Assembly (NCBI GenBank): GCA_024679065.1
Contig: JAGIQG010000009.1
Coordinates: 109,182,001-109,246,000 of the forward strand
Length of the DNA stretch: 64,000 nt
Reading direction: 5' to 3'
Source: Sphyrna mokarran
Taxonomy: Eukaryota
The position numbers were made by a program, and so were the translations under genes. The notes beneath the pieces are model-generated. The model searched no databases and had not been told where the DNA came from. It saw nothing but the letters and a program-made list of their open reading frames with translations. The first letter of the stretch is position 1; every line of letters begins with the position of its first letter. This document shows, in pieces, positions 7,459 through 63,920 of the stretch.

Positions 7459-8009
7459 TTAGAGACCTTTAATCCCGCAGATTGTCAGTGGGGCTGAGTT
7501 TTTCCCATCGCCATTCGATCCTGTACTGAAGTAAGGAAAGATTCTCTCAGTGAAAGTGTGGGTGAAAGTGTGGAGATGGGACATGTTGTCCGCATTGTAA
7601 AATGACACCTGTCCACCCTCACAGTCCAGGAAAACCCCAATTTTCTGGGGATTTACATTAGAAAAACAGAGGAAATCAACGTGGGTGCCACGACAAATAT
7701 GTAGTTCACTGTTTCTGAGCCACACAATCCAATATCCACCTTCAGGGCTTGTATCCAGTTTCCCTTTTCTTTTGACAGACTCTTGGGCCACTCCGATCTC
7801 CCAGTCAGTCTTGTCCTTTACCTCTACCTCCCAGTAATGTTTTCCTGATGTGAATCCCTCTGATCCCAGGACACTGTACCAGTAATCAAACCTCTCTGGG
7901 GTGTCAGGGGGCAGCTGGCATTTGGCTCCGAGTGTCACGCTGGTCCGGTTCTCAGACAGGATGAGCCGGGGATTCGCTGTGATCGGATCCAGAGTCAGAG
8001 AGGCTGGAA
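7459..8009 (-). CDS. TRIM exon 6: PRY-SPRY (B30.2) domain
   Basis: tttcccccag|TT; encodes VPASLTLDPITANPRLILSE...PERFD...GKHYWEVEV...KIGVFLDCEGGQVSFYNA...IFPYF; stop TAA at 7461-7459. Confidence 0.96.
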
Positions 8010-11000
8010 CTGGGGGAAAGTTAAAATAACACAGTCAGTGATTTAGAGAGGAGGGAAATCGCATTGGACAATGAGGGAGTGTGGCAAAGAGAGAGGAGGA
8101 AGAGGGAGCAAGAAGGTGAGGAATGGGAGAATTGAGGGAAGAGGAAGAGAGAGAAAGAGGGAGAGGTGAAGTAGGAAAGAGATGAAAGGTTAAAGAAAGA
8201 AGGAGGTGCAGGAGCAACACAGGTCAGCATGGTCAGGGAAGAGAAGGAGCATAGGACAGAGGAGAGAAAGAATCTGAAGAATTGAAGAGAACAGGCATAG
8301 AGAGAGAGATGAATTCAAGAACTAGTGGAAGACTAGAATTGGAAGGAGATAGCAGTCAGTGAGGGGTAAAGGGGGAGCACAGGAAGAGGAATAGAGAGCA
8401 AGAGATAGTGATGAAGGAGTGAGAGTAAGAATGGGGAGAGAAGGAGTGAAAGAGTTTATGAGAGTGGAATGGTGAGATAGGGGAGGATGGAAGATGGTAG
8501 AGAGTGCGAGAATTTTGGGTGAAGATGGTGAGGTGATGAGAGAATGATGCATGAGATTGAAAAGGGCAGTATGAGGAGTGGAGAGGTAATGTAGGATGTG
8601 GAGGAGAGAGGAAACAGGAAGAGCAACACAGAGAAGAGGTTTTGTAAGATAGGTGGAAGGAAAAGGGAAGAGATGGAAAAGATAAAAGAGAGAGCTAGTG
8701 TGGAAGGAGAACAATGCATTGGGTGAGGAGAGGAGAGCACTGATCAGGGGTCGAGAGAGTACAGGACAGGGTAGGGAGTGTGAGAGGATAAGGAAAAGGG
8801 TAAAGGGAGCGCACAGCGAGAGAGGGAGAAATAGTTCAGGGAAGGAATGTAAGATGTGGAGAATCGGGAGAAGACAGTAAGCAGGAGGGGGAGAGAGTAT
8901 GCTGCATTATTAGGGATGAAGAAAGAGGGAAAGAGAGAAGAGAAAGGGGTAAAAGAACTGTTAACAAGACTTGAATTGAAAGTTACTGCCCTTTACATCA
9001 AGCCATCATTCAATCAGTCATTCTTCCACAATAGGCATAGCCTAAGGTCATGGTTATGTCATTAAGACGTTAGGACGGCGGCGCGGGCTCGTTGGGCCGA
9101 AGGACCTGTTTCCCGTGCTGTGTTGCTCTTTGTTCTTTGTTCTTAATCAGTGTGGTCTCAATGTGCACTGACAAATTTAAACTCAATTGGGATTGGGAAA
9201 GTTTCTCTGCTGGTTGGAGTCAGATGAACACAAAGGAAGATGATTGTGGTTATTGGAGGTCAATCATATCAGTCCCAGGACATCATGGAAAGAATTCCTC
9301 AAGATTAGGATTCTAAGCTCAACCATCTTCAGTAGCTTCATCAATGACCTTCATTCAATCATAAGGTCAGAAGTCGGATGTTGACTGAGTTTTTATTACA
9401 ATGTATAGATACTGAAGCAGTCCCGTTCTTATGCAGCAAGACCTGGACTAAGAGTACAGCATGGGCTGAGAAGTGACAAGTGACATTTATCCCACAAGTT
9501 TGAAGCAATGACCATCTCCAATAAGACATGATCTAACCATCTCACCAAGACATTAAGTGGCATTACCGTCACTGAATCCCCCACAATCAATGTCCTGTGT
9601 ATTAACATTCAGCAGAACCTGAAGTAGACTAGCCATATTCACGTAGTGGCTACTGGAGCTGGACTCTCTGTGGTTACTAAATCCACTAGTCTGCTGATGC
9701 ACCAAAATCTGTTCACCATCCACAAGTTAGAAGCCTGCACTTTCTCCAACAGCCCTGAAGAAGCTCAACATCATCTGGATCAAAACAGCCTATTGGATCA
9801 GCACCCAATCCACCCTGTTGCAAAGTAGCTGTGTGTACATCTAAAAGATGCACTGCAGAAACTCACCAAGCATCTTTCAACAACACCTTCCAAATCTGAA
9901 ACTTCTATTAATGAGAATAAGGATGGCAGATAAATGAGACCACCACCAGTGGGAGTTCCTCTCTGATCCATTCACCACCCTGATTTGGATTTTGACCAGG
10001 TCAAAATCCTGGAATTCCCACCCTAACAACATTGTGGGTGTACCTACACTTCAGGGACTGCAGCAGATTCAAGAAGGCAGCTCACCACCCAACACCTTCT
10101 CAAGAGACAATTAGCAAAGAGCAATAAATACTGGTCTAGCAAGTGATGTTCTCATCACACGAGAAAAGTGAAAGAAATCACAGATTCCAGTGTTCAGCCA
10201 AATTGATTATTCCATGGGATATCCACAAACACTGAACATGGTGGATATGGGAAAGGGTCTAAACATTGACAACATTCTGGCTGTAACAGAAAAGACTTCT
10301 AGGCAGAGGAAACTGTATGGATAACCGTGCAGTTCCACTGCAGATACAGCAACTACCAAACAGCATGAAAAATTGCCCCGCTTTCTACAAAAATCAGGAC
10401 AAATCCAATCTGGCCAATTACTGCCCCATCTGCCCACTCCCAGGCATCAACTTCCTCAGCAATGGTCTGTTGACTGATGCTAAAGTTGGGACCCTTCAGA
10501 GCCACTTTTCTCCAGTCTTCATTATAATCTTGGTCCCAAACTGAACTGAATTCTTGAATTCTGAAAGTTGGGTGAGAGTGATGGATCTGGACATCAGGGC
10601 TGCATTTTTACCAAAGCAGCTCTAGTGAATGGTTGTCAATGGTAACCATGGGAACCTCTTCATAGAGACATATCTAGATAAGAAAGATGGTTATGTTTGT
10701 TGGAAGCCAATCATCTCAGCCTCAGGATATCACAGCAAGAGTTCCTCAGGATGGGATCCTAGACACAACTATCCTCAGTTATTTCTTCACTGACCTTCCT
10801 TCTATTATGAGGAGAGAATTGCTGACGATCACACAATTCCTCAGTAAAGTTCCTAGACCTTGAGACACTCAATCACACAGTCACTGGAAGCTGCATGGTG
10901 GCACAGTAATTAGCACTGCTGCCTCATAGTGCTAGGGACCCGAGTTCGATTCCTGGCTTGGATCATTGTCTGTGTGGGGTTTGCACATTCTCCCTATGTC

Positions 11001-20000: not shown

Positions 20001-23000
20001 ATCCGTGTTCCGGCTGGTATGGATTGAGGACCTAGATCTTTACACTAACATTGGAGGAGCTGGGGATTAGAGGTCTCATTGTATAGAGAACTCAAGAAGA
20101 TAGCACATTAAACAGAACAAGATATATATTTAACCTACACACTTGCTATTTATAATCAAAGTTAATAAAACTCAGATAAAGGATCAAACTATTAAAATCA
20201 TGTAAACATCTAAAAATTGGACATTAGCTTATTATCCCATAATGTAACATATGGGTGCAAAACCCTCTCAGAATCCTCAGCTCCTCAATCTCTGGCCTCT
20301 TAACCATCTTTGATTCCACTTGGTCGGCTAATTGTGACTGCATCTTTAGTTGCCGAGTTCCTAAACTGGAATTTCAACCCTGAACAGCTCAGGATCTCAA
20401 CAGTGCAGAAAAAGGCCACTTGACTCATTGAGTCTGCATCAACTCTCCAATCGAGCATCTTGACCAGGCTCTAACCCCATAAGTCCACATACTTACCTCA
20501 GTAATTCCCCAATCCTACACATCTGGGACATTAAGGGGCAATTTAACATGGCCAATCCACCTAACCTGCACCTTTTTGAATGTTGGAGGAAACCGGAGCA
20601 CCCAGAGGAAACCCATGCAGACATGGGGAGAAGGTGCAGACTCCACACAAACAGTGACCCCAAGGCAAATTGAACCCAGGTCCTTGGTGCTGTGAGGCAG
20701 CAGTACAACCACTGTGTTACTGTACCTACTAATTAGCAACCTTTTCTCATACTGTATAAATACGTTGTTTGCTATTTGTTATTTATATTCCTGCACCATG
20801 TCTTGATGAGTGCAAGATAAGCTTCGACAAAAAAAAGTTTATTTTTCAGTATTCATCAAGTTCCTTATCGCCAAGCAATTATTATTTTCCTCCTTTAAGG
20901 CATCAAGGTATCCCCTGAAACTTTCCTTCTCCATCTGTGTTAATATCTCCTTAACTGGCTCAGCCCCTCAGTTTCTAAGTTCTAATGCTCCTACACTGTA
21001 TTTTCTAGTATGTTAAAGATGCTATACAAATACAGATTGTTGCTGTTATAATTGCTGGTTGTAGAGAAAGGTTGTATTAAAAAATAAAAATAGAACCCAG
21101 TTCTTCTTTATGGTGAGGATTTCTCAAGTCTGTACAGATGTTTGAATAACCCACACTTTGGAAACTCTCTCAGGGTCAGTCAGAAGGTCACTGTGTGTGT
21201 CTGTCTCTCTCAGCGTCAATCAGAAGGTCACTGCCTACCAGGCAGACTGCAGCTTGTAAATTACCACTGAGGGGCTTGGAATTTGGTTATGTTATTTTCC
21301 ACATCATCTTGTCATTTAATACAATATGGGAGAGCAGTTATTAATCACTGTGTTAAAGGGCTTCACCACAATGAAAATATTCTGCATGCATCACAACTAA
21401 GTTACTGTCACTCACTATTCTTTTGAAAATATAATGTCTGTAAACAGGAAACAAATCTCACAATCAGAATAACGTAATTGTTTTTACACAGACTTTGCAG
21501 AGTTTCTATGTCTTACCTCCTTTTCCGACAAGTTCCTTCCTGAAAGAAATAAATGATAAATAGTGAGGATGACAGTAACAGATATAATTGTGAAGGGTTC
21601 AATTTGATTCAATTTGATTTATTATTGTCATGTATTGGTTTACAGTGAACAGTATTGTTTCTTGTATACATTACAGATAAAGTATACAGTACAGAGAGTA
21701 CATAGGAGAGAAGGAAGGGAGAGAGGGCAGAATATAATAAGAGGAAACATTATAGAATCATAGAATAGAATCACAGAATCATTACAGTGCAGAAAGAGGC
21801 CATTCGGCCCATCAAACCTGGACTGTTAACAATCCCACCCAAGCCCCATCCTCGCAGCTCCATACATTTACCTTGCCAGTCCCCCTGACACTAAGGGTCA
21901 ATTTTATCATGGCCAATACACCTAACCCACATATTTTTGAATTGTGGAAGGAAACTGGAGGAAACCCACACAGACACGAAGAGAATGTGCAAACTCTACA
22001 CAGATAATGACCCAAACTGGGAATCACACCCAGTTTGTCTGGTGCTGTGTGGCAGCAGTGCTAACCACTGTGCTACCTTAATGTTACAGTGCCACTGTAA
22101 TGTTACAGTCATAGCTAGGGTGTAAAGAAAGATCAATTTAGTGTGAGGTAGAACCATTCAAAAGTCTGATGGTAGTGGGGAAGAAGCTGTTCTTGAGTCA
22201 GTTGGGATATAACCTCAGGCTTCTGTATGTCTTTTCCAATGTAAGAAGGTGGAAGAAAGTAAATCAGGGTAAAATACTGGGCAGTGGAGCTAATTGGAAT
22301 TTTCTTTCACTGAGCCAACACAGACCAGATGGAGAGAATTGTTTCCTATGTGTTGTAGAATTGATGATATTATTAAAATGATTTTTATATCAGACACTGG
22401 TACTCAACATCAATTCTGCTGACAAACACAGTTGCTGGAATGCTACCCGCCCACCATAGAATCAGCACGGGCAAGGTTCCGATGATGGAAATCTCCGTTA
22501 ACCTCAAGTGGGAATTTCTGGTCTCAACCCAGTGAGGCCCTAAAATTCTGCCCAATAACTCTCACACCCACACTGTTAGACACATCCACAAACTCACAAC
22601 ATGGAACTGGAGATAGATTACAATGGGAGTTCCAAGAGAAAATTACACTAAGGGAGCAAGGAAATGATTCCAAACAAGTGTCCAGATCAGGATAATTTAT
22701 TTCTAGGAAGTTGCCGGTATTCCTGAGATTCTGCAGATTTTGTAGGAGCGGTGAGTTCAGTGACAACAGCAGAAATATCTCAGAAGAAACACAAAATTGG
22801 TTTAATTTTGTTTCTACCTCTCAGTAAATTCTATATTTAGTGAAGTTTCCCTGAACTGAACCACAATATATTCCCTCACCTTTAGAAATATCAGCTCATC
22901 TTTTTGTTCCATCTGTTCTTGCAACTTTGAGAGTTTCTCCTCAATAGAATTTAAATTCTCCTGAATCTCTTGAAGGTTTTTCTTCATTGATTCTACAATC

Positions 23001-23801
23001 TTTTCCTCTTCTTCCCTGAGATCTCTTAGTAATTGCTGTTCTCTTGCGGTGAGAATCTGGTGCATTTTTTTGAATTCAGATGTGATGTGGGTCTGCAGAC
23101 TGCTCGACTGTTCCTACCCAATGAAATGTGAAATATAATTAATGTCCCGCGATAAAGGGAACAAAACTAACCGAGATCCCAGAAAACCAGCACAGGGAGA
23201 CCTTACCCTAACTTCAGAAATCTTCCGTTTCTGATTCTGTGCTGTTTCGAGAACTGCCAATTTCTTCAACTTGAAAGAATTTATGGAAGGTTTCAGCTGA
23301 TCCTGGGATTGGAAGAGAAAATCACAGAATGAAAGTTTTAAACTCTAAAAGTATGATAGAACTATCAGATAAATAGTATTTCCCTTTTACCTTGTAAGTT
23401 TCAAAAGCTTCTTTAATGGGCAGGAAGTGGTGCTCTCTGTGTTCCCGCGAGTCTCTACAAATCAGACAGATCAATTTCTTGTCAGTTTCACAAAACAGCT
23501 TCAGTTCTTCCTGATGTTCCTCACAGTGAAATTTACTTTCCTTCTCTTTCGGATTCAGGTTTAATTCTCGAGCTTTCTCGGCCAGATTCGCTAAGGCCCG
23601 ATTTACCCTGAGGTTTCTTTCCGGAAACTCCTCTCTACATTCTGGGCAGGAGTTTATCCCCTTCTTTTCCCAACTCCGGATGATACAGGAGCGGCAGAAG
23701 TTGTGATCACATTCCAGGATTACCGGATCAGTGAAGAAATTGAGACAAATGGAACAAATTGCCTCCTTGAGCCAACTCTCTGCTTGTTGTCTGGAAGCCA
23801 T
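7459..23801 (-). CDS. TRIM-B30.2 E3 ubiquitin ligase (RING-Bbox2-CC-PRY/SPRY; TRIM39/RFP/A33/NF7-like), 6 coding exons, 476 aa
   Basis: Manual splice: 23801-23391 (411), 23302-23207 (96), 23113-22880 (234), 21539-21517 (23), 19417-19302 (116), 8009-7459 (551) = 1431 nt, open frame, all introns GT-AG. The 96/~231-234/23/~116 exon sizes are the typical class IV TRIM layout. Confidence 0.95.
8040..8960 (+). repeat. GA-rich low-complexity tract (polypyrimidine on the TRIM sense strand)
   Basis: About 900 nt dominated by purines on the + strand, adjoining the TRIM last-exon acceptor. Confidence 0.9.
10895..11190 (+). mobile_element. tRNA-derived V-SINE (HE1-like), representative copy
   Basis: Head ggtggcacagtaattagcactgctgcctca...gttcgattcc and V core gtgtggggtttgcacattctcccc...gggtttcc. 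Similar copies near 1, 20400, 21760, 26905, 27410, 32140, 35160, 38650, 49230, 53015, 54910, 57910 and 59345. Confidence 0.85.
11305..12215 (-). mobile_element. CR1 LINE 3' fragment
   Basis: LLQLYRALVNPQLEYCEQF...QQRFTRLIPGM and YFFTQRVVRLWNSLP. Confidence 0.88.
12240..13490 (+). mobile_element. CR1 LINE 3' fragment (same family as, and opposite in orientation to, 11305-12215)
   Basis: LLQLYRTLVRPHLEYCVQFW...RRFTRLIPG; CR1 tail ctcctatcttctatg. Confidence 0.88.
15030..16450 (-). mobile_element. CR1 LINE RT fragment
   Basis: VYLNFQKAFDKV, WVEDWLTNRKQRV, SDVPQGSVLGPQLF. Confidence 0.9.
16480..19030 (-). mobile_element. Decayed Penelope-like element (RT body ~16480-18430) plus terminal-repeat fragments (~18490-19030)
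   Basis: MGPSYAELFV and DKVPLVLTVHPTNLHIQRIILCNF are typical PLE RT and linker motifs; adjacent hammerhead-like repeats. Confidence 0.75.
19302..19417 (-). CDS. TRIM exon 5 (116 nt, linker before PRY)
   Basis: tttacag|GATTAGT...AAACCTG|gtaaaa; encodes ISEESEMLSGADVSLLIGKFRGPLQFTAWREMIKSIKP. Confidence 0.92.
21517..21539 (-). CDS. TRIM exon 4 (23 nt linker)
   Basis: tttctttcag|GAAGGAACTTGTCGGAAAAGGAG|gtaaga; encodes EGTCRKR(R) and restores the frame to exon 5. Confidence 0.9.
22880..23113 (-). CDS. TRIM exon 3 (234 nt, coiled coil)
   Basis: ggtag|GAACAG...CTAAAG|gtgagg; encodes EQSSSLQTHITSEFKKMHQILTAREQQLLRDLREEEEK...KDELIFLK. Confidence 0.94.
23207..23302 (-). CDS. TRIM exon 2 (96 nt, coiled coil)
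   Basis: cccag|GATCAG...GTTAGG|gtaagg; encodes DQLKPSINSFKLKKLAVLETAQNQKRKISEVR. Confidence 0.93.
23391..23801 (-). CDS. TRIM coding exon 1: RING (C3HC4) and B-box2
   Basis: MASRQQAESW...CSIC...CDHNFCRSC...CPEC (RING) and CEEHQEELKLFCETDKKLICLICRDSREHREH (B-box2). Ends YK|GTAAAA, phase 0. Confidence 0.96.
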
Positions 23802-26340: not shown

Positions 26341-27299
26341 CACTCAGCATCAAGTGGAGATTAATTCTGTCCAGACTTTTTTTCCAAGAATTTCGCGATC
26401 AATTATGTTAGTTAGACTCACTGTTCTGTCATTACTTTGTTTCTCTTTACTTCCCTTCCTGAATAATGGTACTGCATTAATATTGGTCCCACAATACCAT
26501 TATTTGCTGATTTAATACCAGCTAATGTTGATCTCTTTAAGTACAGCTATGAAACAAATGTAACCAGAGCAACTGTTTTCCGTGTTGTTGAGGGATAAAT
26601 TTAAGTCACGAAACTGGGAAAATATTCCCATTTTCATGTTGAAATTATGCCATGGTATTATTTATACCTGCCTGTCAGACAGACTGGGCAATGGCTTAAC
26701 ATCTGGTCCAAGAAACATTACATTTCACACCCCCTGATTGCTGTACTGGAATGTCCATCTAAATTACATGTGCATATCTCGATTACCTGACCTGGTTCAG
26801 AGGTAAGAGCACAAACACTGAATTACAACTAACATCTATCGTTGGATCTGAGGCAATTTCCCACACAACACTGTAATTTTTTTTATAGAAGGAATCCAGA
26901 GAGGGTTGGCACAGTAGCACAGTGATTAATATTGCTGCTTTACAGTGCCAGGGACCTGGGTTTGATTTTCAGCTTGGGCCTCTGTGTGGAGTTTGCACAT
27001 TCCCCTCGTGTCTGCATGGGTTTCCTCGGTTTCTTACCACATTCTGAAAGATGTGCTGGTCGGGTGCATTGACCCAAACAGGTGCCAGAGTGTGGCGACC
27101 AGGGGAATTTCACAATAACTTCACTGCAATGTTAATGTGAGCCTTACTTGTGACAAATAAATAAACTTGAGAGATGACACAGTGGGAGTGGATGTTCTGT
27201 CAATGCGATGATCTCCCAGACATTTTCATAACACACATTGAATGGATTATTCCACTGACAATGATTCGGATGAAAGACACTTAAAAGTTAAGTTCAACA

Positions 27300-29180
27300 A
27301 TATCAACAAAATGAAGGAGATAGTCATCAACATCAGGGACGAAGTAGAAAGGGTCGAGACCTTCAAGTTTATAGATTTCCAGATCAACAATCTGTCATGC
27401 AATCTTTATAGTGCAGAATAAGACCATTCTGCCCATCAAACACACACCAACAACAATCTCACCCAGTCCTATCCCAGTAACATTATGTAATTATCCTGCT
27501 AATCCCCTGACACTAAGGGGCAATTTAGCGTGGTCAATCAATCTAACCTACACATCTTTGGACTGTGGGAGGAAACTGGAGAAAACCCATGCAGACACAG
27601 GGAGAATTTGCAAACTCCACACAGTCAGTCACCCAAATCCATAATTCAACCTGAATCTCTGGCGCTGTGAGGCAGGAGTGAAGCATCACTGTGCCATTAT
27701 CCTGGCTCATTCGTGCTGATGCCATAGTTAAAGAAGCCCACCAATGCCTCTAGTTTCTCAGGAAACTAAGGAAATTTGGCATGTCAGCTATGATTCTCAC
27801 CAAAAGACGCATCATTGAAAGCATTCTTTCTGGTTGTATCAAAGCTTGGTATAGCTCCTGCTCTGACCTAGTCCACAAGAAACTACAAAGGGTCAGGAAT
27901 GAAGCCCAGTTCATCATGCAAACCGGTCTCTCATCCACTGAAACTGTTAATACTTCCCGCTGCCTCAGAAAAACAGCCAACATAATCAAGGAACTTGTGC
28001 ACCCAGGACATCACTTGGAATACTGCGCCCAGTTCTGGTCTCCGTACTATCGGAAGGATGTGGAGTCCTTGGAGAGAGTGCAGAGGAGGTTTACCAGGAT
28101 GCTGCCTGGTATGGAAGGACTGTCCTATGAGGAACGATTAGATAGACAGGGGTTGTTTTCCCTTGAAAGACGTCGGCTTAGAGGGGATCTCATAGAGGTG
28201 TATAAGATTATAAAGGGTATAGATAGAGTAAATGGAGGGAAACTTTTTCCACCTTTAGAAATGGATAGGACGAGAGGTCATGGCCATAGGGTGAGGGGGG
28301 CTATGTATAGGACGAATATTAGAGGGCAGTTTTTCACACAAAGGGTAGTGGGGTGTGGAATGCACTGCCGAGTAAGGTGGTGGGAGCAGGCACGCTGGGG
28401 CTGTTTAAGGGTCTCTTGGACAGCCACATGAGCGGTATGCAGATAGAGGGATATATTAGGACTGTTTAACTACGGCTTTTTTCCCACAGGTAATTCGGTC
28501 CATAATTTGAGCACGCATTCGGCAGGTGGTGCGGGTACAGCTCTTGGATGTTGATTCATGGGTTGCCTGGTACCTCATGTCGTATATGAGTGCTTTATGT
28601 GACCACCTGAAGGGCACCATGACAGCTCAGAGACTATCGATGTGGCTGTGCAGACACTTGGAATTGGGCCGGTGTCTGCGGGAGTTTGCGCGTTCTCCCC
28701 GTGGTTGCGTGGGTTTTCTCCGGGCACTCCGGTTTCCTCCCACAACCCAAAAATTCGCTCTTAGGTTGATTGGGTAACAAATTGTCCCTATGGTGAAAAT
28801 TTTTCCAAATTAGGATTAATATATATATTATTATATAGGACTATTAAAATAGGATAATGATTTGGTATTACGGTGGCGCGGGCTCGTTGGGCCGAAGGGC
28901 CTGTTTCCCGTGCTATGTTGCTTTAAAAAAAAAAAAAATACTCTCTTCCACCTTCTTCCAACGGGAAAATATATAAAAGTCTGAGCACGTGTACCAACCA
29001 AATCTGCTGCATTAGCCTTTTGAATGGACCCACTTCACAATAAGTTGATTTTTCTCTATACACTGGCTATGATTGTAACATTACATTCTGCACTCTCTCC
29101 TTTCCTTCCTTATGTATGGTATGCTTTGACGGTATAGAATGCAAAGAACAATATTTTTCACTGTATGTTAATACATGTGA
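27300..29180 (+). mobile_element. Older L2/Rex-Babar-type LINE 3' fragment, interrupted by a SINE (27410-27700) and the young CR1
   Basis: FLRKLRKFGMS...IESILSGCIKAWY...KKLQRV motif; host sequence resumes at 28939 (tactctcttccacc). Confidence 0.75.
28012..28938 (+). mobile_element. Young 5'-truncated CR1 LINE with a V-SINE-like segment in its 3' region and an A tail, nested in an older LINE
   Basis: Intact CR1 ORF2 C-terminus HLEYCAQFWSP...VQRRFTRMLPG...LFSLERRRLRGDLIEVYKI; CpGs retained; ends GGGCCGAAGGGCCTGTTTCC...A14. Confidence 0.88.
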
Positions 29181-37109: not shown

Positions 37110-37826
37110 CTCCCCCGCCCCCGCCCCCGCCCCCACCCCCCCTTCTCGCCCCCCTCCCCCCCCCCCCCCCCCCCCCCCCCCCTCCTCGCCCCCCCCACCC
37201 CCCCTTCCTCGCCCCCCCCCCACCCCCCTTCCTCGCCCCCCCCCCACCCCCCTTCCTCGCCCCCCCCCCACCCCCCTCCTCCCCCCCCCCCCCCCCCTTC
37301 CCCCCTTCCTCGCCCCCCCCCCCCCACCCCCCCTTCCTCGCCCCCCCCCCACCCCCCCTTCCTCGCCCCCCCCCACCCCCCCTTCCTCGCCCCCCCCCAC
37401 CCCCCCTTTCCTCGCCCCCCCCACCCCCCTTCCTCGCCCCCCCCCACCCCCCCTTCCTCGCCCCCTCCCGCCCCCCCCCCCCCCTTCCCTCGCCCCCCCC
37501 ACCCCCCCTTCCTCGCCCCCCCACCCCCCCACCCCCCCTTCCCTCGCCCCCCCCACCCCCCCTTCCTCGCCCCCCCCACCCCCCCACCCCCCCTTCCTCG
37601 CCCCCCCCACCCCCCCTTCCTCGCCCCCCCACCCCCCCTTCCTCGCCCCCCCACCCCCTCCTCCCCCCCCACCCCCCCCTCCTCGCCCCCCCCACCCCCC
37701 CCTCCTCGCCCCCCCTCCTCCCCCCAATCCACTCCCCCTCGCCCCCAACCCATCCCGATCCCTCCCCCTCGCCCCCCCCCCAGTCCCGATCCCTCCCCCT
37801 CGCCCCCCCCCCCCCCCCCCCCCCCC
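37110..37826 (+). repeat. C-rich tandem repeat, (CnTTCCTCGCnA)n, ~22-24-bp unit
   Basis: Poly-C runs punctuated by TTCCTCG and A; explains the long Pro-rich and Gly-rich ORFs. Confidence 0.95.
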
Positions 37827-40288
37827 AAGTCCCGATTCCAACCCCAACCCCAACCATGGTGGCCTTGCCTTTATCTTCAGGCCCTAAACTCTGTATTCCC
37901 TCTTTCAACCGCCTCCCTCCCTGATTCACAAAAGTATTCCCTGAAATTTATCTCATTAAACAGGGAGAGAGAGGCCTGGGATTCTCTGTCCGATGTCCTG
38001 GGACGTTAATCATCCCTCAGCCAACATCACCAAAGACAGATTTATCTGACTAGGGTAGCAGTGCTGTTCGTGGGATCTTGCTGTGTACTGACGGACTTTC
38101 TGTACTTCTCTCCATGGGCCGCTCTCTCTGTTGAAATATGACAGGGTCAAATCGCACCCTCAGAAGACCTGAGCGCTCATTCTGCACTGCGGGAGTGCAA
38201 CACTGCCTTCTTTCTGAGGAAGTGGGAAACTGAGCCTCCCGCCTCCCAACATTCACCTCCCCCCAAACCCCATCAGTACGATCCCTAAAGCCATGATTTC
38301 AAAGGGGAGTTACCCCCAGTAAGCAAAACAGAAAATGCTGGCTAGAAGCAGCAGGTATGACTGTTTCTCTCTCCAGATACTGAGTTAACAATTGATTCCA
38401 ATGTAATTCTTCTGCAGAAGCGTCAAAATGTTAAGTTTGTATCTCTCTGTACAGATGCTGCCAGGCCTGAGTTGGGTATTTTCTGTTTTTATTCTAGATC
38501 TCCAGCATCCACAAGTCATTTATGTTTATTGTAGAATTATTCCCTGATCAATTTTTATCCCTCAATCAACATTGCAAACAAAAGGAGCAAATTATTAGGT
38601 TATCGTCACATTGTTCTGTTTGGGGTGTGAACAGACAAAATAGGAGCAAAATCATAGAGAACCTTCAGTGCAGAAGGAAGCCATTCGGCCCATTGAGTCT
38701 GCACTGACAACAATCCCACCCAGGCCCTATCCCCATATATTTACCCTGCTATTCTCTCTAACCTAAACATCTCGGGACGGTAAGGGCAACTTAACATGGC
38801 CAATCAACCTAATTCGCACATCTTTGGACTGTGGGAGAAAATCCACGCAAACACGAGGAGAATGTGCAAAATCTGCACAGACAGTGACCCAAGCTGGGAA
38901 TTGAACGCAGGTCCTTGGAGCTGTGAGGCAGCAGTGCTAACCATTGTGCTGCCCAGAAGTAGGCCAGACAGCCCCTTGAACCTATCCAATTAATAAGATC
39001 ATGGGTGATTTGTCTGTTTTTAGAATTCACATTTACTGCTGATATATCTTTGATTCCCTCCCCTGACAAGAATCAGTCTCCCCTGCCTTTAAAAGATTCA
39101 CCTTCCTCTGTCTTCTGAGGCTGAGAGTTCTAATGTCAAACACCCCCCAGAGAAAAAAATACCCCTCATCACCGCCTCCTAATTTTAAAGGTTCTGGACT
39201 CCTCACAAGGGGGAACATCCTTTCCACGTCCACCTTAGTGAGACCGTTCAGGATTTTATAGACTTTAATCAAGCCACTCCTCATTCTTCTAAACTGCATT
39301 GGAAACAAGCCCAGTCTGTCCAGCCTTTCCTCATAAGGCAAAGTACTTGTTACTTGGAGCTTGCGTCTGTGTTCCCGACCTGTACTGCCACCTGAATTGG
39401 CTTAATTGGCAGTAAAAACACTTTGGGGAAATCATGAGGTTGTGAAGGCTGCTTTAGAAGTAGGAATCATTCCCACACTGAGAATTGGGGGTCAGTAACT
39501 GAGGACTGGGGTGAGTGAGCATGAACTGACTTTACAAAATGGAAATGAAATATGTCAATAGCAATGAACGTAACACACTCTGTAGGAGCTCCTTAGACAG
39601 TACCTTCCAAACTCTTGGCCACTGTCATCCAGAGAGAGGAGGAACACCACCACCTGGAGGTTCTCCTCCAAGACACTCACCATCCTGACTTGGAAATGTA
39701 TTGGTATTCCTTCACTATCACTGGGTCAAAACCCTGGAATTCCCTCCCTAACGGCACTCTCGTTGCCCCTACACCCCAGGGACTGCAGTGGTTCAAAAAG
39801 GCAACTCACCACCACTTTCTCAAGGGGCAATTAATTTTTAAAGTTTATTTATTAGCGTCACATGTAGGCTTACATTAACACTGCAGTGAAGTTACTGTGA
39901 AAATCTCCTTCAGGAGGGGTAATAAATGCTGGCCTAGTCAGTGATGCCCATCTCCTAAAGATAAAGAAATCTAATAAATTCAGTCGAATATTCAGGAGAA
40001 ACTTACCCAGCGAGATGTGAGAATTTGGAACCTGCTTTAACAGGGTGTAGTTGAGGAGAATTGTGTGAATGAAGGTGAATTTGGATTAACGAGTGAGGGG
40101 AGGAGGAAGAGGGTGAGATAAAATAAAACAAGGAGGGTCATATCGAGCACAAATACCAGCCACAAACTGTCGGGCTGAATGGCCTTATTCTTTACTGTTA
40201 CTTAGATATGATTCCAAGGAGCGTTGAATCCTAATGGAAGCCTCTTATCTTTCAGGGCCTGCACTCAGGCTTCGGTGTTTTGCTGAGG

Positions 40289-52300: not shown

Positions 52301-55300
52301 TTGGCAATAAAGAGATGTCACTGGAGATGGAGATTTCCCTCACCGTTTCTATAATGGGAAAAAGTATTATATAACCTTATCTTGTGGAATCACACACCGT
52401 GATTATGTCAGTCAATGTGAAAACATACTCAATAAAGATCTCTCTGATAGCTATGTGAAGGTGTTGCTAATTGATGTCTTTTTCCTTTCAGACAAAATTC
52501 GCTGTCTCCCTAAAACAGGTAGGACCCAAGAGTATTGTTTTATGCATTCTGAGGATGTCAACGTGATTGAGGAGTGGGTGGGTGGAAATGGTAGTGACAG
52601 TGGACTAGTAATCCAAAGACCCAGCCTAATTTTCTGGGGCCATGGGTTCAAATCCCCACCACGGCAGTTGGTGGAATTTAAATGATTAAATCGGGAATAA
52701 AGAATATAACCAGTACAAGACATAGCTGATCCACTAATGTCCAAGGAAATCTGCTGTCCTCACCTGGTCTGGCCATGTGACTCAGGATGCTCAGCAATGT
52801 GCTTGGCTGGTGGATCCAGAACAAGAGGACGCTGTTTTAAAATTAATGCTCGCCCGTTTGGGACAGAGATGAGGAGAATTTGCTTCTCTGAGGGTTTGGC
52901 AACTTTGGAACTTGGAACTCAGAAGGAGGTAAGCGGGGCCATTGAGTATTTTAAGGCAGAGGTAGATAGGTTTTTGTTAGGCAAGGAAATCAAAGGTGAT
53001 CAAGGATAAAGTAAAGTTTATTTATTAGTCACAAGTAGGCTGATATTAACACTGCAATGAAATTATTGTGAAAATCCCCTAGTCGCCACACTCTGGCACC
53101 TGTTTGGATACACTGAGGGAGAATTTAGCATGGCCAATCCACCTAACCAGCACATCTTTCTGACTGTGGGAGAAACCGGAGCACTCGGAGGAAACCCACA
53201 CAGACATGGGGAGAATGTGCAAACTCCTCATGGGCAGTGACCCAAGCTGGGAATCGAACCCAGTTCCCTGGCACTGTGAGGCATCAGTGCTAACCACTGT
53301 GGCGCCCAACTTATTGAAGTTCTCTGAAGAAATTAATCCACATAATGTGGATAAAGGGGAACCTGTCGATGTGATATATGTGGATTTCCAAAATTTGATA
53401 AGGGGCCACATCAAGTTTTAAACACAAAATAACAGCTGATGGTGCAGGGTGTAACAGATTAGCGTGGATAAAAAGCCGGTTAGCTAACTGGAAGCAGCGA
53501 CTGGGGATAAGTGAGTCATTTTGATTTGGCAAGTTGTCCCCAGTAGATTAGCACAGGGATCAGTGCTGGCGTCTCAAACTGTGTAAGTGACTTGAATGAA
53601 GAAACAGAAGGTGTGGTTGCTAAATGTTCTGCTGACACAAAGTTAGGTAGGAAAGTAAGTTATGAAGAGGACGTGGAATTGAAAGGCTTGACTTACGAGG
53701 AGTGTTTGGGGACTGTGGGTTTGTACTTGATGGAGTTTAGAAAGATGAGGGGGAAATCTCATTGAAACGTACAGAATTCTGAAAGGCCTGGACAGAGTGG
53801 ATTTGGAGAAGGTGTTTCCATGAGTAGGAGAGACTAGCATCTGAGGGCACAGCCTCAGAGTAAAGGGACAATCCTTTAGAACCCAGATAGGGAGGAATTT
53901 CTTCAGTGAGAGGGTGGTGAATGTATGGAATTCATTGCCGCAGAAGGCTGTGGAGGCCGGGTCACTGAGTGTCTTTAACACAGAGATAGACAAGTTCTTG
54001 ATTGGTAAGGCAATCAAAGGCTATGGGGAAAAGGCAGGAGAATGGGGTTGAGAAACATATCAGCCGTGATTGAATGGCAGAGCAGACAATGGGCTGAATG
54101 GCCTAATTCTGAGCAAAGATTGACTGATGCATGATAATGTGAACTCATCAACTTAGTCAAGAGGATTAAGAAAGCAGCATTTTATTTAAATGGAGAGCAA
54201 ATGCAGAACTCTGAAGTACAAAGGGCTCTCAGTATCTTGATACATAGATCAGGAAAAGTTACTCTGCAGATACAGGAAGTGGTCAGAAAGCCTTCTGCAG
54301 TGTTGTTTCTTGCAAGAGAATGGTTATAAAAGTAGGGACGTTTTGCTAGGCCATTGGTGGGACCACATCTGGAGTACTTTGTACGGTTTTGGCCTTCTTA
54401 CTGGAGAAAGGATATAATGGCATTAGAAACAGTTCAGGAAATGTGCGCTCGACTAATCCTGGGAATGGGAGAGGTATCCTACGAGGATAAATTGGATAAA
54501 CTTGGCCTGATTTCTTAAGAGTTGAGAAATGTAAGATCCTGATTGGATGGATAGGAAGAGGCCAAATGGCCTACTCCTCTTAATCCATATGTGTGAATGT
54601 TCGTAAGGCTAGAGAACAGATTGCTGTATCCATCAAAATAAATCTTCAGAAAGAGTTCCTCTTTTAGATTTTAGCTAATGACTGAGATTAATTTACCTTC
54701 AAATAATTCATTACACATTTAATACTCAATCTCATTATTCTTTCAGCTTGTGAGAGAATGACTGCTGTTGCAGGTAAGATTTGCAAGTCACAAGTGCGTA
54801 GAATTTGCACCATCTTCCAAATCTCAGCCACAGGAGGAGGCCATTCAATCCATTAAAATTGAGTTATTGAAAGACATGTTCCACGATTCCAAACCTCTCC
54901 CCTGAAAAATTATAGAATCCCTACAGTGAGATGGAGGCCATTTGGCCCACTGAGCTTTTACCAACAAGTTCCACCCAAGTATTTATCCTGCTAATTCCCC
55001 CCGACGCTAAAGGACAATTTAGCATCGCCAGTCCACCTAACCCGCACATCTTTGGAGTGTGTGAGGAAACCAGAGCACCCGGAGGAAACCCACACAGACA
55101 CAGGGAGAACGTGTAAACTCCACACAGACAGACCCCAGCTAGAATTGAACCCGAATCCCTCGCACTTCATTTCCTCCAGTTTTCTTACTTGATTGCTGTG
55201 TTTAGCGAAATAAATTCCTCTTCCCCTCACAGTGCCAGGGACGCGGGTTCAATTCCAGCCTCGGGTAACTTGTTGGGCTCAATAACCTCCTCCTGCTCTG

Positions 55301-56973
55301 TTCAGATTCTATGATTCATTTTTAACCCACTATCATCAATCTGTATCCAGTTATTATTGACTCTACTGCCACTGGAAATAAAGTAGATAAGGGAGGTGGT
55401 GACATTGTGATATTGTCAGTGGGTTAATAATTCAATGACCCAGGATAATGCTCTGAGGAGGTTTGAATCCCATCACTGGCAGATGGTGAAATTTGAACTA
55501 AATAAAGTTTACTGATGACCGTTGTTGATCGATGTAAAACCCTGGCCCAATTCACTGATATCCCTTAGGGAAGGAAATCCACCATCCTTACCTGGTCTGG
55601 CCCACGTGTGACTTCAGAGACACAGCCACTTGGTTGACTTCTAACAAAATCTCTGAAATGGCCACTCGGTTCAAGGAATAGACAACAAATGCTGGCCCAG
55701 CCAGCAATGCCCACATCCAATGAATGAATTTACGGAACATCCGAGCAGGTCTATCCTGAAATTCGCTGGAATTAGGAACCTGCCACTTTAATTCCTTGCT
55801 GTTTTGCTATGGTTACCCTGTCCTTTTGCAAAGAATATTCCAACACACACACAGACTGTTCAGCTCAGCTAATAGTCCACACGAGTAACTTCTGGTGGAC
55901 TCACTTTCCCCATCTGCAGTGATCCATGTGTGAAATGCTTGGCCTCCGCTCCCTCTCCTTTTAATAACCTTTTTAAAGAGAGCTAAACCCTGTCCAGTGC
56001 CTGCAGTTAAACCTTTGAGGATTCTGGGTCTGTATTCATTGGAGTTAGAAGGATGAAGGGGGATCTTATTGAAACTTACAGGATACTGCGAGGCCTGGAT
56101 GTGGAGAAGATGTTTCTGCTAGCAGGGAAAACTAGAACCAGAGGGCACAACTCAGACTAAAGGAACAATTCTTTAAAACAGATGAGGAGGAGTTTCTTTA
56201 GCCAGAGGGTGGTGAACCTGTGGAAGGTTGTGGAGGGCAGGTCATTGAGTGTCTTTAAGACAGAGTTAGATGGGTTCCTGATCAATAAGGGGATCAGAGG
56301 TTATGGGGAAAAAGCAGGAGAATGCTGATACTTTTCTCATCCCCAATGATTGAATGCCGGAACAGACTCGATGGGCCGAGTGGCCTCATTCTGCTCCAGT
56401 GTCTTAATGGTTTTTCCCTTTATTTTTGTAGTTAGTGTCACCTTGGACAATGAGACTGCGCATCAGGACCTCGAGGTATCCTCCAACCAGACCACAGTGA
56501 GCTACGCTGCAGGAGATAAGATTCTCAGTGATACAGACAGGAGGTTTATTTCCAGGTCAGCCCTGCTGGGCAAGGATGGATACACGTCGGGCAGGCACTT
56601 CTGGACAGTGGAAGTGGAGAGCCATGTCCCCTGGGATTTGGGAATAGCCAGGGAGTCGGTGGACAGGAAGGTCAACCAACCTCTGAACCCCGAAAACGGG
56701 TATTGGACCATTGGGTATGATGGGCACAAATACTCAGTAAATGACACAAACCCTCTGGAAATATCAGTGAAGGACAAAATCCAGAAGATCGGAATATATG
56801 TCAACTATGAAGCTGGACAGGTTCTGTTCTGCGACGCTGCCACCTTTTGCCACCTGCACAGTTTCAACAGTTCTTTCAAGGAGCCAATCTACCCCTTCTT
56901 CAATCTCTTTCAAGATGGCAGAATTGTCATTTTACCATTGACCCCCGTCAAACACCTTAATAATTGCACTTGA
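40289..56973 (+). CDS. Butyrophilin-family protein (SP-IgV-IgC-TM-heptad stalk-B30.2), 11 coding exons, 499 aa
   Basis: Manual splice gives a 1500-nt open frame; every intron is phase 1 and GT-AG; domain order is that of BTN/BTNL genes. Extra symmetric micro-exons could have been missed. Confidence 0.92.
40525..41580 (-). mobile_element. Penelope-like fragments (GIY-YIG ~41330-41580 plus terminal repeats)
   Basis: Minus strand reads YIGETTQMLRQR...VGKHFSGHGHSAS, homologous to 29950-30200. Confidence 0.8.
40601..40640 (-). ncRNA. Penelope-type minimal (type I) hammerhead ribozyme motif
   Basis: Minus strand reads TCAC-CTGACGA-A-GGAG-CAGCA-CTCT-GAA-AGCT-T-GTGA: CUGANGA and GAAA cores, stem I TCAC/GTGA, stem II GGAG/CTCT, palindromic AGCT in place of stem III. 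Confidence 0.6.
41858..42202 (+). CDS. Butyrophilin IgV exon (345 nt)
   Basis: ccctcag|TG...GCGA|gtgagt; encodes VLECQL...LEVRW...VHLF...QDARYKDRT...GNISLKLTNVQLADEGVYKC (B7/BTN-type V-set). Confidence 0.95.
42810..43545. mobile_element. Head-to-head pair of HE1-like SINEs (42810-43115 -, 43265-43545 +)
   Basis: The same SINE head and core in opposite orientations, about 150 nt apart. Confidence 0.85.
44330..44608 (+). CDS. Butyrophilin IgC exon (279 nt)
   Basis: gtgcag|GT...CCAG|gtcagt; encodes LGNRPSV...GIQLLCESGSWYPMPEVEWKD...FSCSM (BTN IgC motif C-x-S-x-x-W-Y-P-x-P-x-V-x-W). Confidence 0.95.
45590..45890 (+). mobile_element. HE1-like V-SINE with CR1-type tail
   Basis: ggtggcacagtg...gttcgattcc head, V core, gactcgatgggccgaatggcct tail. 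Confidence 0.85.
46061..46180 (+). CDS. Butyrophilin transmembrane exon (120 nt)
   Basis: cctctag|AT...CGAG|gtatga; encodes DEFYPRTSNWLYVFLLIFFGTIGLIVGLILFYRKQKRYVR (hydrophobic span then basic stop-transfer). Confidence 0.93.
46779..46805 (+). CDS. Butyrophilin micro-exon a (27 nt)
   Basis: tctttcag|ATCTCGAAAAGAGGCCAACAACAAAAG|gtaaga; encodes DLEKRPTTK. Confidence 0.85.
46857..47760 (+). repeat. Minisatellite, ~45-47-bp unit (CAGACACTGTCCTTTCCCCCTCTGGGACTGGGTGGGACAGTGGGT), about 19-20 copies
   Basis: Highly similar tandem copies read directly; lies between micro-exons a and b. Confidence 0.96.
47881..47907 (+). CDS. Butyrophilin micro-exon b (27 nt)
   Basis: tgttttag|AACATGTGCACCATATTCGTCTGAACC|gtgagt; encodes EHVHHIRLN. 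Confidence 0.8.
48882..48902 (+). CDS. Butyrophilin micro-exon c (21 nt heptad)
   Basis: Long T/C tract, ttcag|AGAAGCTCAGCGTGGATTTCA|gtaaga; encodes QKLSVDF. Confidence 0.82.
50130..50240 (+). mobile_element. DeuSINE (SacSINE1/AmnSINE1-like) core fragment; others near 2690, 14450, 38020 and 38560
   Basis: ttgtttgtgg...ttgctgtgtgcaaaatggctgcc...aacagtgactac...ttggctgtaaa resembles the Deu domain as recalled. Confidence 0.6.
50806..50826 (+). CDS. Butyrophilin micro-exon d (21 nt heptad)
   Basis: ttgtccag|ACAATCTCCAGACCGAGCTAG|gtaaga; encodes NNLQTEL. Confidence 0.85.
   Translation, partial: TISRPS
51280..51460 (+). repeat. Degenerate (TG)n microsatellite
   Basis: Repeated tgtgtg/tatgtg runs. 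Confidence 0.85.
52492..52518 (+). CDS. Butyrophilin micro-exon e (27 nt)
   Basis: cctttcag|ACAAAATTCGCTGTCTCCCTAAAACAG|gtagga; encodes DKIRCLPKT. Confidence 0.8.
53300..54600 (+). mobile_element. CR1 fragments (a better-preserved 3' end at ~53680-54110 nested in an older copy)
   Basis: VDKGEPVDVIYVDFQ; NFFSERVVNVWNSLPQKAVEA. Confidence 0.8.
54747..54773 (+). CDS. Butyrophilin micro-exon f (27 nt, pre-B30.2)
   Basis: tctttcag|CTTGTGAGAGAATGACTGCTGTTGCAG|gtaaga; encodes ACERMTAVA. Confidence 0.85.
55990..56410 (+). mobile_element. CR1 3' end abutting the B30.2 exon acceptor
   Basis: gggggatcttattgaaacttacagg...gactcgatgggccgagtggcct tail. Confidence 0.82.
56432..56973 (+). CDS. Butyrophilin B30.2 (PRY-SPRY) exon
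   Basis: tttttgtag|TT; encodes VSVTLDNETAHQDLEVS...GRHFWTVEV...WDLGIARESV...PENGYW...KIGIYVNYEAGQVLF...IYPFF; stop TGA ends at 56973. Confidence 0.95.
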
Positions 56974-57880: not shown

Positions 57881-58851
57881 TAAGGCTTCATATTGCAATT
57901 AGAATCAAAGAATAGAATTATAGAATCCCTACAGTGCAGAAGAAGCCATTTGGCCCATTGAATCTGCACCAACTCTCTGACAGAGTATCTTACTCAGGCC
58001 CTCCCTGTAACCATGCATTTACTATGGCCAATCTCCCTAAAGGGTAATTTAACATGGCCAATCCTTTTAACCTACATATCTTTAGACTGTGGAAGGAAAC
58101 CGAGCATCCAGAGGAAACCCACGCAGAAACGGGAAGAACATATACATGCAGTCACCTGAAGACTGGAATTGAACCTGGGTCCCCGATGCTGGGAGGCAGC
58201 AGTGCTAACCCTAAACACTGTGCCACTGTGCCGTCCTTTTAATATATGTTCCATTGACTGCCATGGTGGGACTTGTATCCGGGTCTCCAGCTTGGACCCC
58301 TGGATTATTCGCCCAGCGATGTTACCGGGGTTGGGGGCGCGGTGGTGGTCAGTTTGTGGGAAAATCACCACAGACTGTCCAAAAGGTGATCAAAGTGGGT
58401 TTGACTGACAGTTTACAGTGGAGTCTCCTGGTCTCTGAGTGCCAAATACATTAATCATCACCTATTCATGGAAACCCCACACCCAAAGTTTCTTGTTTAA
58501 GTGTTGCATGTAATATAATGCCTGTGTTTGTGTATTTTTATGTACAGTTTTTCAAATCACGCACTAGTAATGATGGAACTTTTATTGAGCAAAGATTATC
58601 CAGTGACGATGATTATCCAGCAAATAGAAATGAACATAGGAATTAGGATTGTTCACTTCTGCCCCTAATTCCTATCCTCATCTCAAGATCTTTGTACCTT
58701 ATGTTATTAAATATGGAAGTGAATGGCCGTAAGGCTTCATATTGCAATTAGAATCAAAGAATAGAATTATAGAATACATACAGTGCAGAAGAAGCCATTT
58801 GGCCCATTGAATCTGCACCAACTCTCTGACAGAGTATCTTACTCAGGCCCT
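57881..58851 (+). repeat. 122-bp direct duplication (57881-58002 and 58730-58851)
   Basis: TAAGGCTTCATATTGC...CTCAGGCCCT occurs twice with 2 mismatches. Confidence 0.92.
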
Positions 58852-59719
58852 GAGGGTTAATGTTTTGAAAGTGGATTTCACTGGCTAAACCAACATTTGT
58901 TACCCATCCCTAATTCCTGTTCGAGAAGGTGTTGGTGAGCTACCTTCTTGAACTTGCTGCAGTCCATGTGGTGCAGGTACACCTGCTATGTGTTAGGGTG
59001 GGAGCTCCAGGATTTTGACCCAGTGACAGTGAAGGAATGGTCAAGTTGGTGAGTGAGTTGGAGAGGAGGTTGCATGTGGTGGTGTTCCCCGGTATCTGCT
59101 GCTTTTGTCCTTCTGGATGGAAGTGGTTGTGAGTTTGGAAGGTGCTGCCTAAGTGAATTTTACAGTACTCTATAAACTGTGTGTGCCTTTTATATGCTGT
59201 ATTTGAGACCAGAACTCCCACTCACCTGCCAAAGAGGCAAACCCTGAAAGCTTGTGGGTCTATAATCAAATAAACTGGTTGGACTTTAACCTGGTGTTGT
59301 GAGACTTCTTACTAATTGAATTCCCAATAAATCTTTATCACATTGATCATGGCCAATCACCTAATCCGTATGTCTTTCCGACTGGGAGCACCCAGAGAAA
59401 TGCACACCGACACGGGGAGAATGTGAAAACTCCACACGGTCAGTGACCCGAGGCCAGAATTGAATCTGGGTCCCTGGCACCGTGAGGCAGCAGCAGGTTT
59501 AAGCACTGCGCCACCCGTCTGCACACGGGGAACTCTCCCAGTTACCCAAGACGTTACTGAGTTTTGCTGTAAAAAGTATTTAAAGACTCTGCTTCCACCG
59601 CCTTTCGAGGAAGAAAATTCCACAGACTCACCGCCCTCTGAGAGAACACCATTCTCATCTCTGTCTTACCTGGGTAACCCCTCATCTTTAAACGGTGACT
59701 CTCTAATTCTAGATAGGAA

Positions 59720-63639: not shown

Positions 63640-63920
63640 ATAGCTACCGTGTTTCCGGCTCCGGGGCGGATGTTTCAAAGTGAAAGTAACAAAGATTAAG
63701 GTTGGGTTTTTTTTCCCCCTGTTTTGTCCGGCCTGTTTCTTCTCCGTTCTCCAGCTCAAACAAACCGGCAGAGAGACAGAGGGAAGAGAGGTGTTTGATG
63801 TAGCAGCAGGTAAGTGAATGAATGAGAGTGTTATCCTGGACAGTAAAAATTGGTTACATTAGGAAATTACAGCGTTCCCGGGTGGGGACCGCAGCCTCCG
63901 GGTTCAGGGTGGGATTCTCC
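63640..63920 (+). promoter_or_regulatory. Probable promoter and non-coding first exon of a third gene running off the window
   Basis: CpG-containing region with GC box GGGGCGGA (63663-63670), IRF-E AAAGTGAAAGT (63677-63687), perfect donor CAG|GTAAGT (intron starts 63810) and kappaB-like GGGATTCTCC (63911-63920). Confidence 0.55.

Follow-up and report, generated by a model that had tools for sequence, protein, structure and literature searches.

According to PMC12841164, butyrophilins occur in all jawed vertebrates tested, among them the epaulette shark, white shark, Atlantic stingray and elephant shark, and in the first three of these they lie on the MHC class I chromosome; that source also describes a class-specific phylogeny, squamates that retain butyrophilins while lacking gamma-delta T-cell receptors, and a location of human BTNL3/8 off the MHC chromosome. 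The pairing of immunoglobulin and SPRY domains is listed among those arising in jawed vertebrates (PMC11788884), and in mammals butyrophilins work as heteromers (PMC8968916, PMC8813856). For sharks, T cells of the bamboo shark are once said to carry a ‘btnl2’ marker, which is not assignable to the gene considered here (PMC11372145); ‘butyrophilin’, ‘BTN’ and ‘TRIM’ have no occurrence in the main text of PMC10751288. In the literature searched, mostly non-subscription papers, no functional study of any shark butyrophilin was found.

How does a hammerhead locus compare? The window, i.e., the whole 64,000-nucleotide stretch of Sphyrna mokarran DNA analysed, holds a gene that is a real and ordinary member of this known family, with annotated orthologues. 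A sequence-only reading had singled it out; a surprise it is not, as stand-alone models exist in eight of 13 species and the butyrophilins of four cartilaginous fishes are published (PMC12841164). Neither the lineage to which it belongs, lineage A below, nor that lineage’s extra cysteine was found described in the literature searched, which was mostly outside subscription papers and covered PMC12841164 apart from its tree figure.

Gene structure and the six micro-exons

Rebuilt from coordinates, 11 coding exons on the plus strand lead from an ATG at 40289 to a stop at 56973 (Table 1) and give a 1500-nt frame of 499 residues with a single terminal stop; all 10 introns are GT..AG and all are in phase 1. 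The rebuild and the Pfam matches bear out what had been proposed from the letters, a complete butyrophilin of 11 exons with canonical sites and an open 499-residue frame, and judged by its architecture the gene is intact and that of a type I membrane butyrophilin. Of the features by which the family is defined (PMC4046983, PMC8813856), it has a B7-type IgV followed by an IgC2, one membrane helix, heptads, an in-frame C-terminal B30.2 and exons laid out domain by domain. The leader in exon 1 resembles the one that the Mustelus model has for the tandem paralogue, and 20–33 of the 40 residues of the membrane-helix exon are identical in orthologues.

Since exon 1 starts behind a splice acceptor, a further 5′ exon lies upstream; a search for it in the window did not place it. 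The candidate donor at 38354 was tried for that role and rejected, as its likeness to the paralogue’s leader exon comes down to a few end bases and the motif around it is found again at 806. At the other end no AATAAA lies within 2.2 kb of the stop, the first ATTAAA being at 58706 and the first AATAAA at 59269. Upstream of the gene, 37110–37826 is a C-rich low-complexity array of locally ~79% G+C, which accounts for long ORFs rich in Pro or Gly on either strand, and in intron 5 a plus-strand minisatellite (46876–47759; 46-nt unit, 19.4 copies, 94% matches) makes several long spurious ORFs.

Table 1. Positions of the butyrophilin exons and of neighbouring features in the window
Feature	Position	Strand	Remarks
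Exon 1	40256..40352	+	leader after AG acceptor; ATG 40289; signal peptide, 21 codons; coding 40289–40352
IgV exon	41858..42202	+	residues 22–136; Pfam V-set E 1e-13
IgC2 exon	44330..44608	+	residues 137–229; Cys158/Cys211; Pfam C2-set_3 (butyrophilin 3A2-like IgC) E 1.4e-14
Membrane-helix exon	46061..46180	+	residues 230–269; basic stop-transfer segment; hydropathy peak 2.88 at residue 242
Micro-exon 5	46779..46805	+	27 nt; juxtamembrane; Leu271 and Pro275 invariant
Micro-exon 6	47881..47907	+	27 nt; coiled coil begins; Mustelus model matches, then runs into next intron
Micro-exon 7	48882..48902	+	21 nt; heptad
Micro-exon 8	50806..50826	+	21 nt; heptad
Micro-exon 9	52492..52518	+	27 nt; absent from Carcharodon isoform X2
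Micro-exon 10	54747..54773	+	27 nt; helix into B30.2
B30.2 (PRY-SPRY) exon	56432..56973	+	residues 320–499 to stop; Pfam PRY E 2.3e-10, SPRY E 1.6e-14
Probable 5′ leader exon, next butyrophilin in tandem (lineage B)	63683..63811	+	donor after 63811; remainder beyond window
TRIM gene, head to head with butyrophilin	21518..23801	-	Pfam RING, B-box, TRIM_CC
TRIM RING/B-box exon	23801-23391	-
TRIM 96-nt exon	23302-23207	-
TRIM coiled-coil exon	23113-22880	-
TRIM 23-nt exon	21540-21518	-
Second B30.2 exon	7462..8010	-	probably TRIM’s last exon

How far can six exons so short be trusted? Their lengths are, in order, 27, 27, 21, 21, 27 and 27 nt, for 50 residues together. The 10.25 kb separating the membrane and B30.2 exons was scanned for a pyrimidine tract with YAG, a frame-keeping 9–60 nt free of stops, and a donor, and the six acceptors returned are exactly those of the micro-exons (in seven rows, one being an alternative donor). 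At lengths of 21 or 27 the opposite strand yields 0, four other 10.25-kb plus-strand stretches, two of them overlapping, yield 0, 1, 0 and 0, and 300 first-order Markov resamples have a mean of 0.16 and a maximum of 2, none reaching 6, though with a filter chosen after the exons had been read this is a lenient control. Homology of the 50 residues is, at the level of sequence, a stronger check than a splice-site scan: they align gaplessly to five of the six complete orthologues and to all three tandem paralogues, and the sixth complete orthologue, Carcharodon isoform X2, is without exactly exon 9. Another database isoform from that shark, X4 (P0003), is without exactly the membrane exon and would have no membrane anchor.

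The heptads call for one refinement, as only two of the six small exons are seven-residue exons. The 3-4 hydrophobic repeat runs over about residues 280–304, with hydrophobic columns at 280, 290, 294, 297, 301 and 304 in seven to nine of nine lineage-A rows, and is of sufficient length, as judged from the residues, for a short coiled coil.

Lineage, annotation and neighbours

Searches with single exons lead to shark proteins that NCBI names butyrophilin-like (4 of 120 candidates, then 14 of 360). End-to-end identity is 53–57% to ‘butyrophilin 1A1-like’ proteins of Carcharodon, Stegostoma, Chiloscyllium, Hemiscyllium, Heterodontus and Rhincodon, the database name ‘butyrophilin subfamily 1 member A1-like’ being automatic and implying no orthology to mammalian BTN1A1. 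The nearest relative is that of another ground shark, Mustelus asterias, with 80% identity over residues 1–270. Among the 120 of 1230 matches listed, a profile search adds Cetorhinus, Pristiophorus, Pristis, Mobula, Narcine and a catshark fragment; a search of 50%-identity representatives gave, among the 150 of 3577 matches listed, mostly unnamed multi-Ig proteins, and of its rows only two, named through a different search, were used. The window gene’s own protein is absent from the protein-database search results.

Separate trees of IgV, IgC and B30.2, as the sequence-only reading had advised, were built from the window gene and 69 named database proteins, chosen from 15 found with single exons and the 120 listed profile matches (four unnamed profile-search rows and redundant isoforms being left out); they are unrooted, rest on alignments of 95–172 columns and contain no BTN2, BTNL3/8 or non-BTN B7 (B7-H4, CD276, HHLA2) sequence. 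In all three the window gene falls in the same 13-row clade of sharks and rays, lineage A, with support of 100/99 for IgV, 100/99 for B30.2 and 99 for IgC (a quick tree). About four further elasmobranch butyrophilin lineages stand beside it, making about five. A clade of lineage A with mammalian BTN/BTNL is rejected by the AU test, for IgV at p 0.0068 (23/69 rows) and for B30.2 at p 0.0196 (21/76 rows), the groups having been named after the free trees were seen and the mammalian rows being BTN1A1, BTN3 and marsupial BTN/BTNL2-like only. The label ‘ancestral-type’ is therefore not supported, since there is no special link to mammalian BTN/BTNL and lineage A is one of about five shark and ray paralogue lineages: on the present trees the gene is a lineage-specific paralogue, with nothing to mark it as more ancestral than its sisters. 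By the same sequence comparisons it is orthologous to a paralogue conserved across sharks and batoids.

Was the gene hidden from annotation? It was not. Stand-alone lineage-A models are present in eight of the 13 species, namely Carcharodon (475 aa, one micro-exon skipped), Cetorhinus (494), Chiloscyllium (500), Heterodontus (496), Rhincodon (503), Pristiophorus (494), Pristis (499) and Mobula (500). In the other five the model is faulty: in Mustelus, Stegostoma and Hemiscyllium lineage A is the first unit of a model that runs on into the paralogue after it, the Narcine model is garbled, and the catshark has a B30.2 fragment only. The expectation that automated annotation may fragment the gene was thus right as to faulty models and less so as to their kind, fusion with the next paralogue being commoner than fragmentation. 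In the Mustelus model exon 5 is missing and the reading continues into intron 6 before it passes to the next gene, and the model of Narcine is contaminated by repeat-derived pieces.

That next gene, paralogue B, is probably entered at the window’s end, where the putative leader exon matches the linker of the fused Mustelus model (tblastn, 53% over 45 codons, E 2.5e-9). A precedes B in the three fused models, and in Chiloscyllium the two have neighbouring locus tags on a single contig; Heterodontus has A and B on contigs of equal size, and orthologue and paralogue matches go likewise together within each species.

On the other side, head to head with the butyrophilin, is a TRIM gene. A search for exons that would link its fourth exon with the B30.2 at 8010 found none, and reading on past the fourth exon leads to a stop, and because of both the TRIM gene may be truncated or decayed. 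The B30.2 at 8010–7462 stands apart from other TRIMs and clusters with one of the other butyrophilin lineages of sharks (Hemiscyllium P0186/P0198, Heterodontus P0212; 100/99), and the B30.2 of a Mobula TRIM clusters with a catshark butyrophilin (100/100), which suggests, from these sequences, that the TRIM and butyrophilin genes of this cluster have swapped B30.2 exons. Of such exchange lineage A gives no sign, the clade of 13 species being the same for all three domains. A six-frame search of the window for further IgV, IgC or B30.2 exons found only the gene’s three domains and the B30.2 at 8001–7492. Weak tblastn matches around 27100–27180 (E 0.4–0.9) are put down to chance, as the six-frame domain search found nothing there. 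No Pfam family was found for the plus-strand ORF at 27754–28431, which, with many shorter stretches, resembles fragments of decayed LINE and other interspersed repeats. There is no MHC gene within the window; the TRIM neighbour fits an MHC-type setting.

The ectodomain and its possible receptor face

The predicted structure of the IgV (pLDDT 94) has V-set strands, and its sequence has one N-glycan sequon, at residue 99. Besides the canonical Cys45/Cys117 there is an extra cysteine, Cys28 in strand A (codon 41875–41877, plus strand), with which the ectodomain has five. This third IgV cysteine is present in 13 of 13 lineage-A domains vs none of 56 other butyrophilin IgVs, three of the 56 being gapped there. 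No partner for it is found in the ectodomain or in paralogue B. Since the equivalent position of V domains usually faces inward, Cys28 may be buried. It may also, by analogy, form a link between chains; chicken BG molecules are disulfide-linked dimers (PMC4046983).

That the Ig domains belong with butyrophilins and not with other B7 members, an issue on which the sequence-only reading had staked its case, holds for one of the two. For the IgC the best PDB matches are BTNL8 (36.7 bits), BTNL3 (35.3) and BTN3A1 (30.7), with CD276 near 20 per domain. The IgV, however, is about equally near B7-H4 and MOG/BTN1A1: as a single sequence it scores 66.7 bits to B7-H4, 52.8 to MOG, 52.7 to PD-L1 and 52.0 to BTN1A1, while a six-sequence profile gives MOG 81.5, B7-H4 78.4, BTN1A1 74.1, BTNL8 69.3, BTN2A1 66.6 and CD276 58–66 per domain. 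With the predicted IgV, Foldseek puts B7-H4 first by E-value without separating B7-H4, MOG, PD-L1 and BTN2A1 (TM-scores 0.86–0.92), and the first match in an atlas search is a BTN3A2-named cluster (0.97). Within the clade conservation is 0.60 for IgV, 0.55 for IgC and 0.58 for B30.2, i.e., slightly highest for IgV.

For BTN2A1 the residues reported as important for V-gamma-9 binding are R65, K79, R124, Y126 and E135 (PMC7083227). The shark IgV has at these CFG positions, as read from printed alignments, R59, R71, K116, L118 and D128, so that one is identical, three are conservative and one, Y126, is changed. R59 and R71 are invariant in nine of nine lineage-A rows, and such CFG residues are widespread in the family; as a sequence the shark CFG face is compatible with receptor binding, by residues that are common family-wide.

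Proposed function and relation to known systems

What might such a protein do? On balance, and by analogy, we favour a surface dimer of A and B that would engage a lymphocyte receptor and so tune or select T cells; it is favoured because heteromers are the working form in mammals and a conserved partner lies in tandem. Everything in this mechanism beyond the gene model we infer, mainly from mammals. The protein would be displayed on the cell as a dimer, which IgC, membrane helix and short coiled coil would keep together, with paralogue B its most likely partner, in the manner of BTNL3–BTNL8 or Btnl1–Btnl6. The CFG face of the IgV would meet a lymphocyte receptor, for which the germline-encoded face of the gamma-delta receptor is the leading, unproven candidate, and the B30.2 would serve in the cytoplasm as a protein-binding module, not as a sensor of small metabolites. 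The net role would be one in T-cell tuning or selection.

By the same analogy the role of gamma-delta T-cell ligand is plausible. Butyrophilin architecture does not itself imply a gamma-delta partner, since squamates keep the one without the other (PMC12841164), and against this role are the changed Y126, CFG residues that are common in the family, an IgV no nearer to the BTN-family domains of mammals than to B7-H4, IgV conservation only slightly above that of IgC and B30.2, and the want of special kinship to mammalian gamma-delta ligands. It is rather doubtful, but if true of consequence, that A and B, side by side across galeomorph sharks, form an obligate heterodimer whose IgV, with its third cysteine and conserved C-C′ face, binds the germline-encoded face of shark V-gamma. 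Selection of gamma-delta T cells by butyrophilins would then be as old as the jawed vertebrates, and the A–B pair a reagent with which to test that age.

Best placed of the alternatives, and still unlikely, is a role outside T cells of the kind had by BTN1A1, ERMAP or MOG (lipid secretion, red-cell membrane, adhesion), with the B30.2 docking an enzyme or scaffold. It has to contend with the setting of the gene, in a TRIM/butyrophilin cluster, which for two sharks and a ray is reported from the chromosome that carries the MHC (PMC12841164), and with most characterised members of full architecture being immune regulators (PMC8968916). Could the protein instead work mainly inside the cell, its B30.2 serving restriction or sensing as in antiviral TRIMs? 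That B30.2 is intact and related to the domains of TRIM21, TRIM7 and pyrin, the B30.2 tree mingles shark TRIMs with the remaining shark butyrophilin lineages, and human BTN3A3 reportedly acts against avian influenza. Nonetheless, the lineage-A B30.2 tracks the IgV/IgC clade of 13 species with neither exchange with TRIMs nor expansion, and such a factor is quite improbable.

Metabolite sensing by the B30.2, as in mammalian butyrophilins, had also been brought up, and its phosphoantigen form can be judged from residues. The best PDB match of the domain is indeed the BTN3A3 B30.2 (E 1.3e-31), and BTN3A3, BTN2A and BTN3A1 are its top solved structures. The pocket of BTN3A1 is formed by H351, H378, K393, R412, R418 and R469 (PMC5829056), at which the shark domain has R361, D388, P403, S421, P427 and N477, none of the six identical and five basic positions lost, and arginine at BTN3A1 position 351 is the non-binding BTN3A3 state (PMC7348870). 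With the pocket residues lost and the non-sensing arginine in place, sensing of the BTN3A1 type is unlikely as far as residues can tell, and, BTN3 having originated with placental mammals (PMC5829056), that the gene is a phosphoantigen sensor of that type is hardly to be entertained. Just as scant is the prospect that the Ig and membrane exons and the B30.2 exon are separate genes, or the locus a pseudogene, for though these parts stay unconnected in the models of Mustelus and the catshark, the former is visibly wrong, continuous models of 475–503 residues exist in eight species, and the frame is open with canonical sites and the micro-exon lengths that the orthologues require.

The use of the locus is practical: there is now a checked 11-exon model where prediction often fails, a lineage placement and a candidate tandem partner, and these yield defined constructs for asking if butyrophilin control of gamma-delta T cells dates to the first jawed vertebrates.

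Set beside known systems, the gene has in human BTN3A3, BTN3A1 and BTN2A1 full-length profile matches in one stretch (E 1.7e-95 to 1e-89), and with BTN3A3 it has in common an exon plan of leader, V, C, membrane, small exons and B30.2 (PMC5829056), there being four small exons in the human gene and six in the shark. It differs from all three in having no phosphoantigen pocket, a C-C′ loop two residues shorter and the extra IgV cysteine, and it is not their orthologue. With BTNL3/BTNL8 and mouse Btnl1/Btnl6 the likeness is of two sorts, BTNL8 and BTNL3 being the best matches of the shark IgC exon and the arrangement being in each case a tandem pair of divergent paralogues; heterodimers and V-gamma binding would, for the shark pair, be a matter of analogy. 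B7-H4 (VTCN1) is the best single-domain sequence match of the shark IgV, but butyrophilins outscore B7-H4 and CD276 for the shark IgC and for the paired ectodomain, and neither of the two B7 proteins is known to have heptad exons or a B30.2. Closest of all are the elasmobranch BTN1A1-like models, which share the lineage-A clade, the domain order, the juxtamembrane length of 50 residues and the extra IgV cysteine, and from which the hammerhead gene differs in sequence divergence only.
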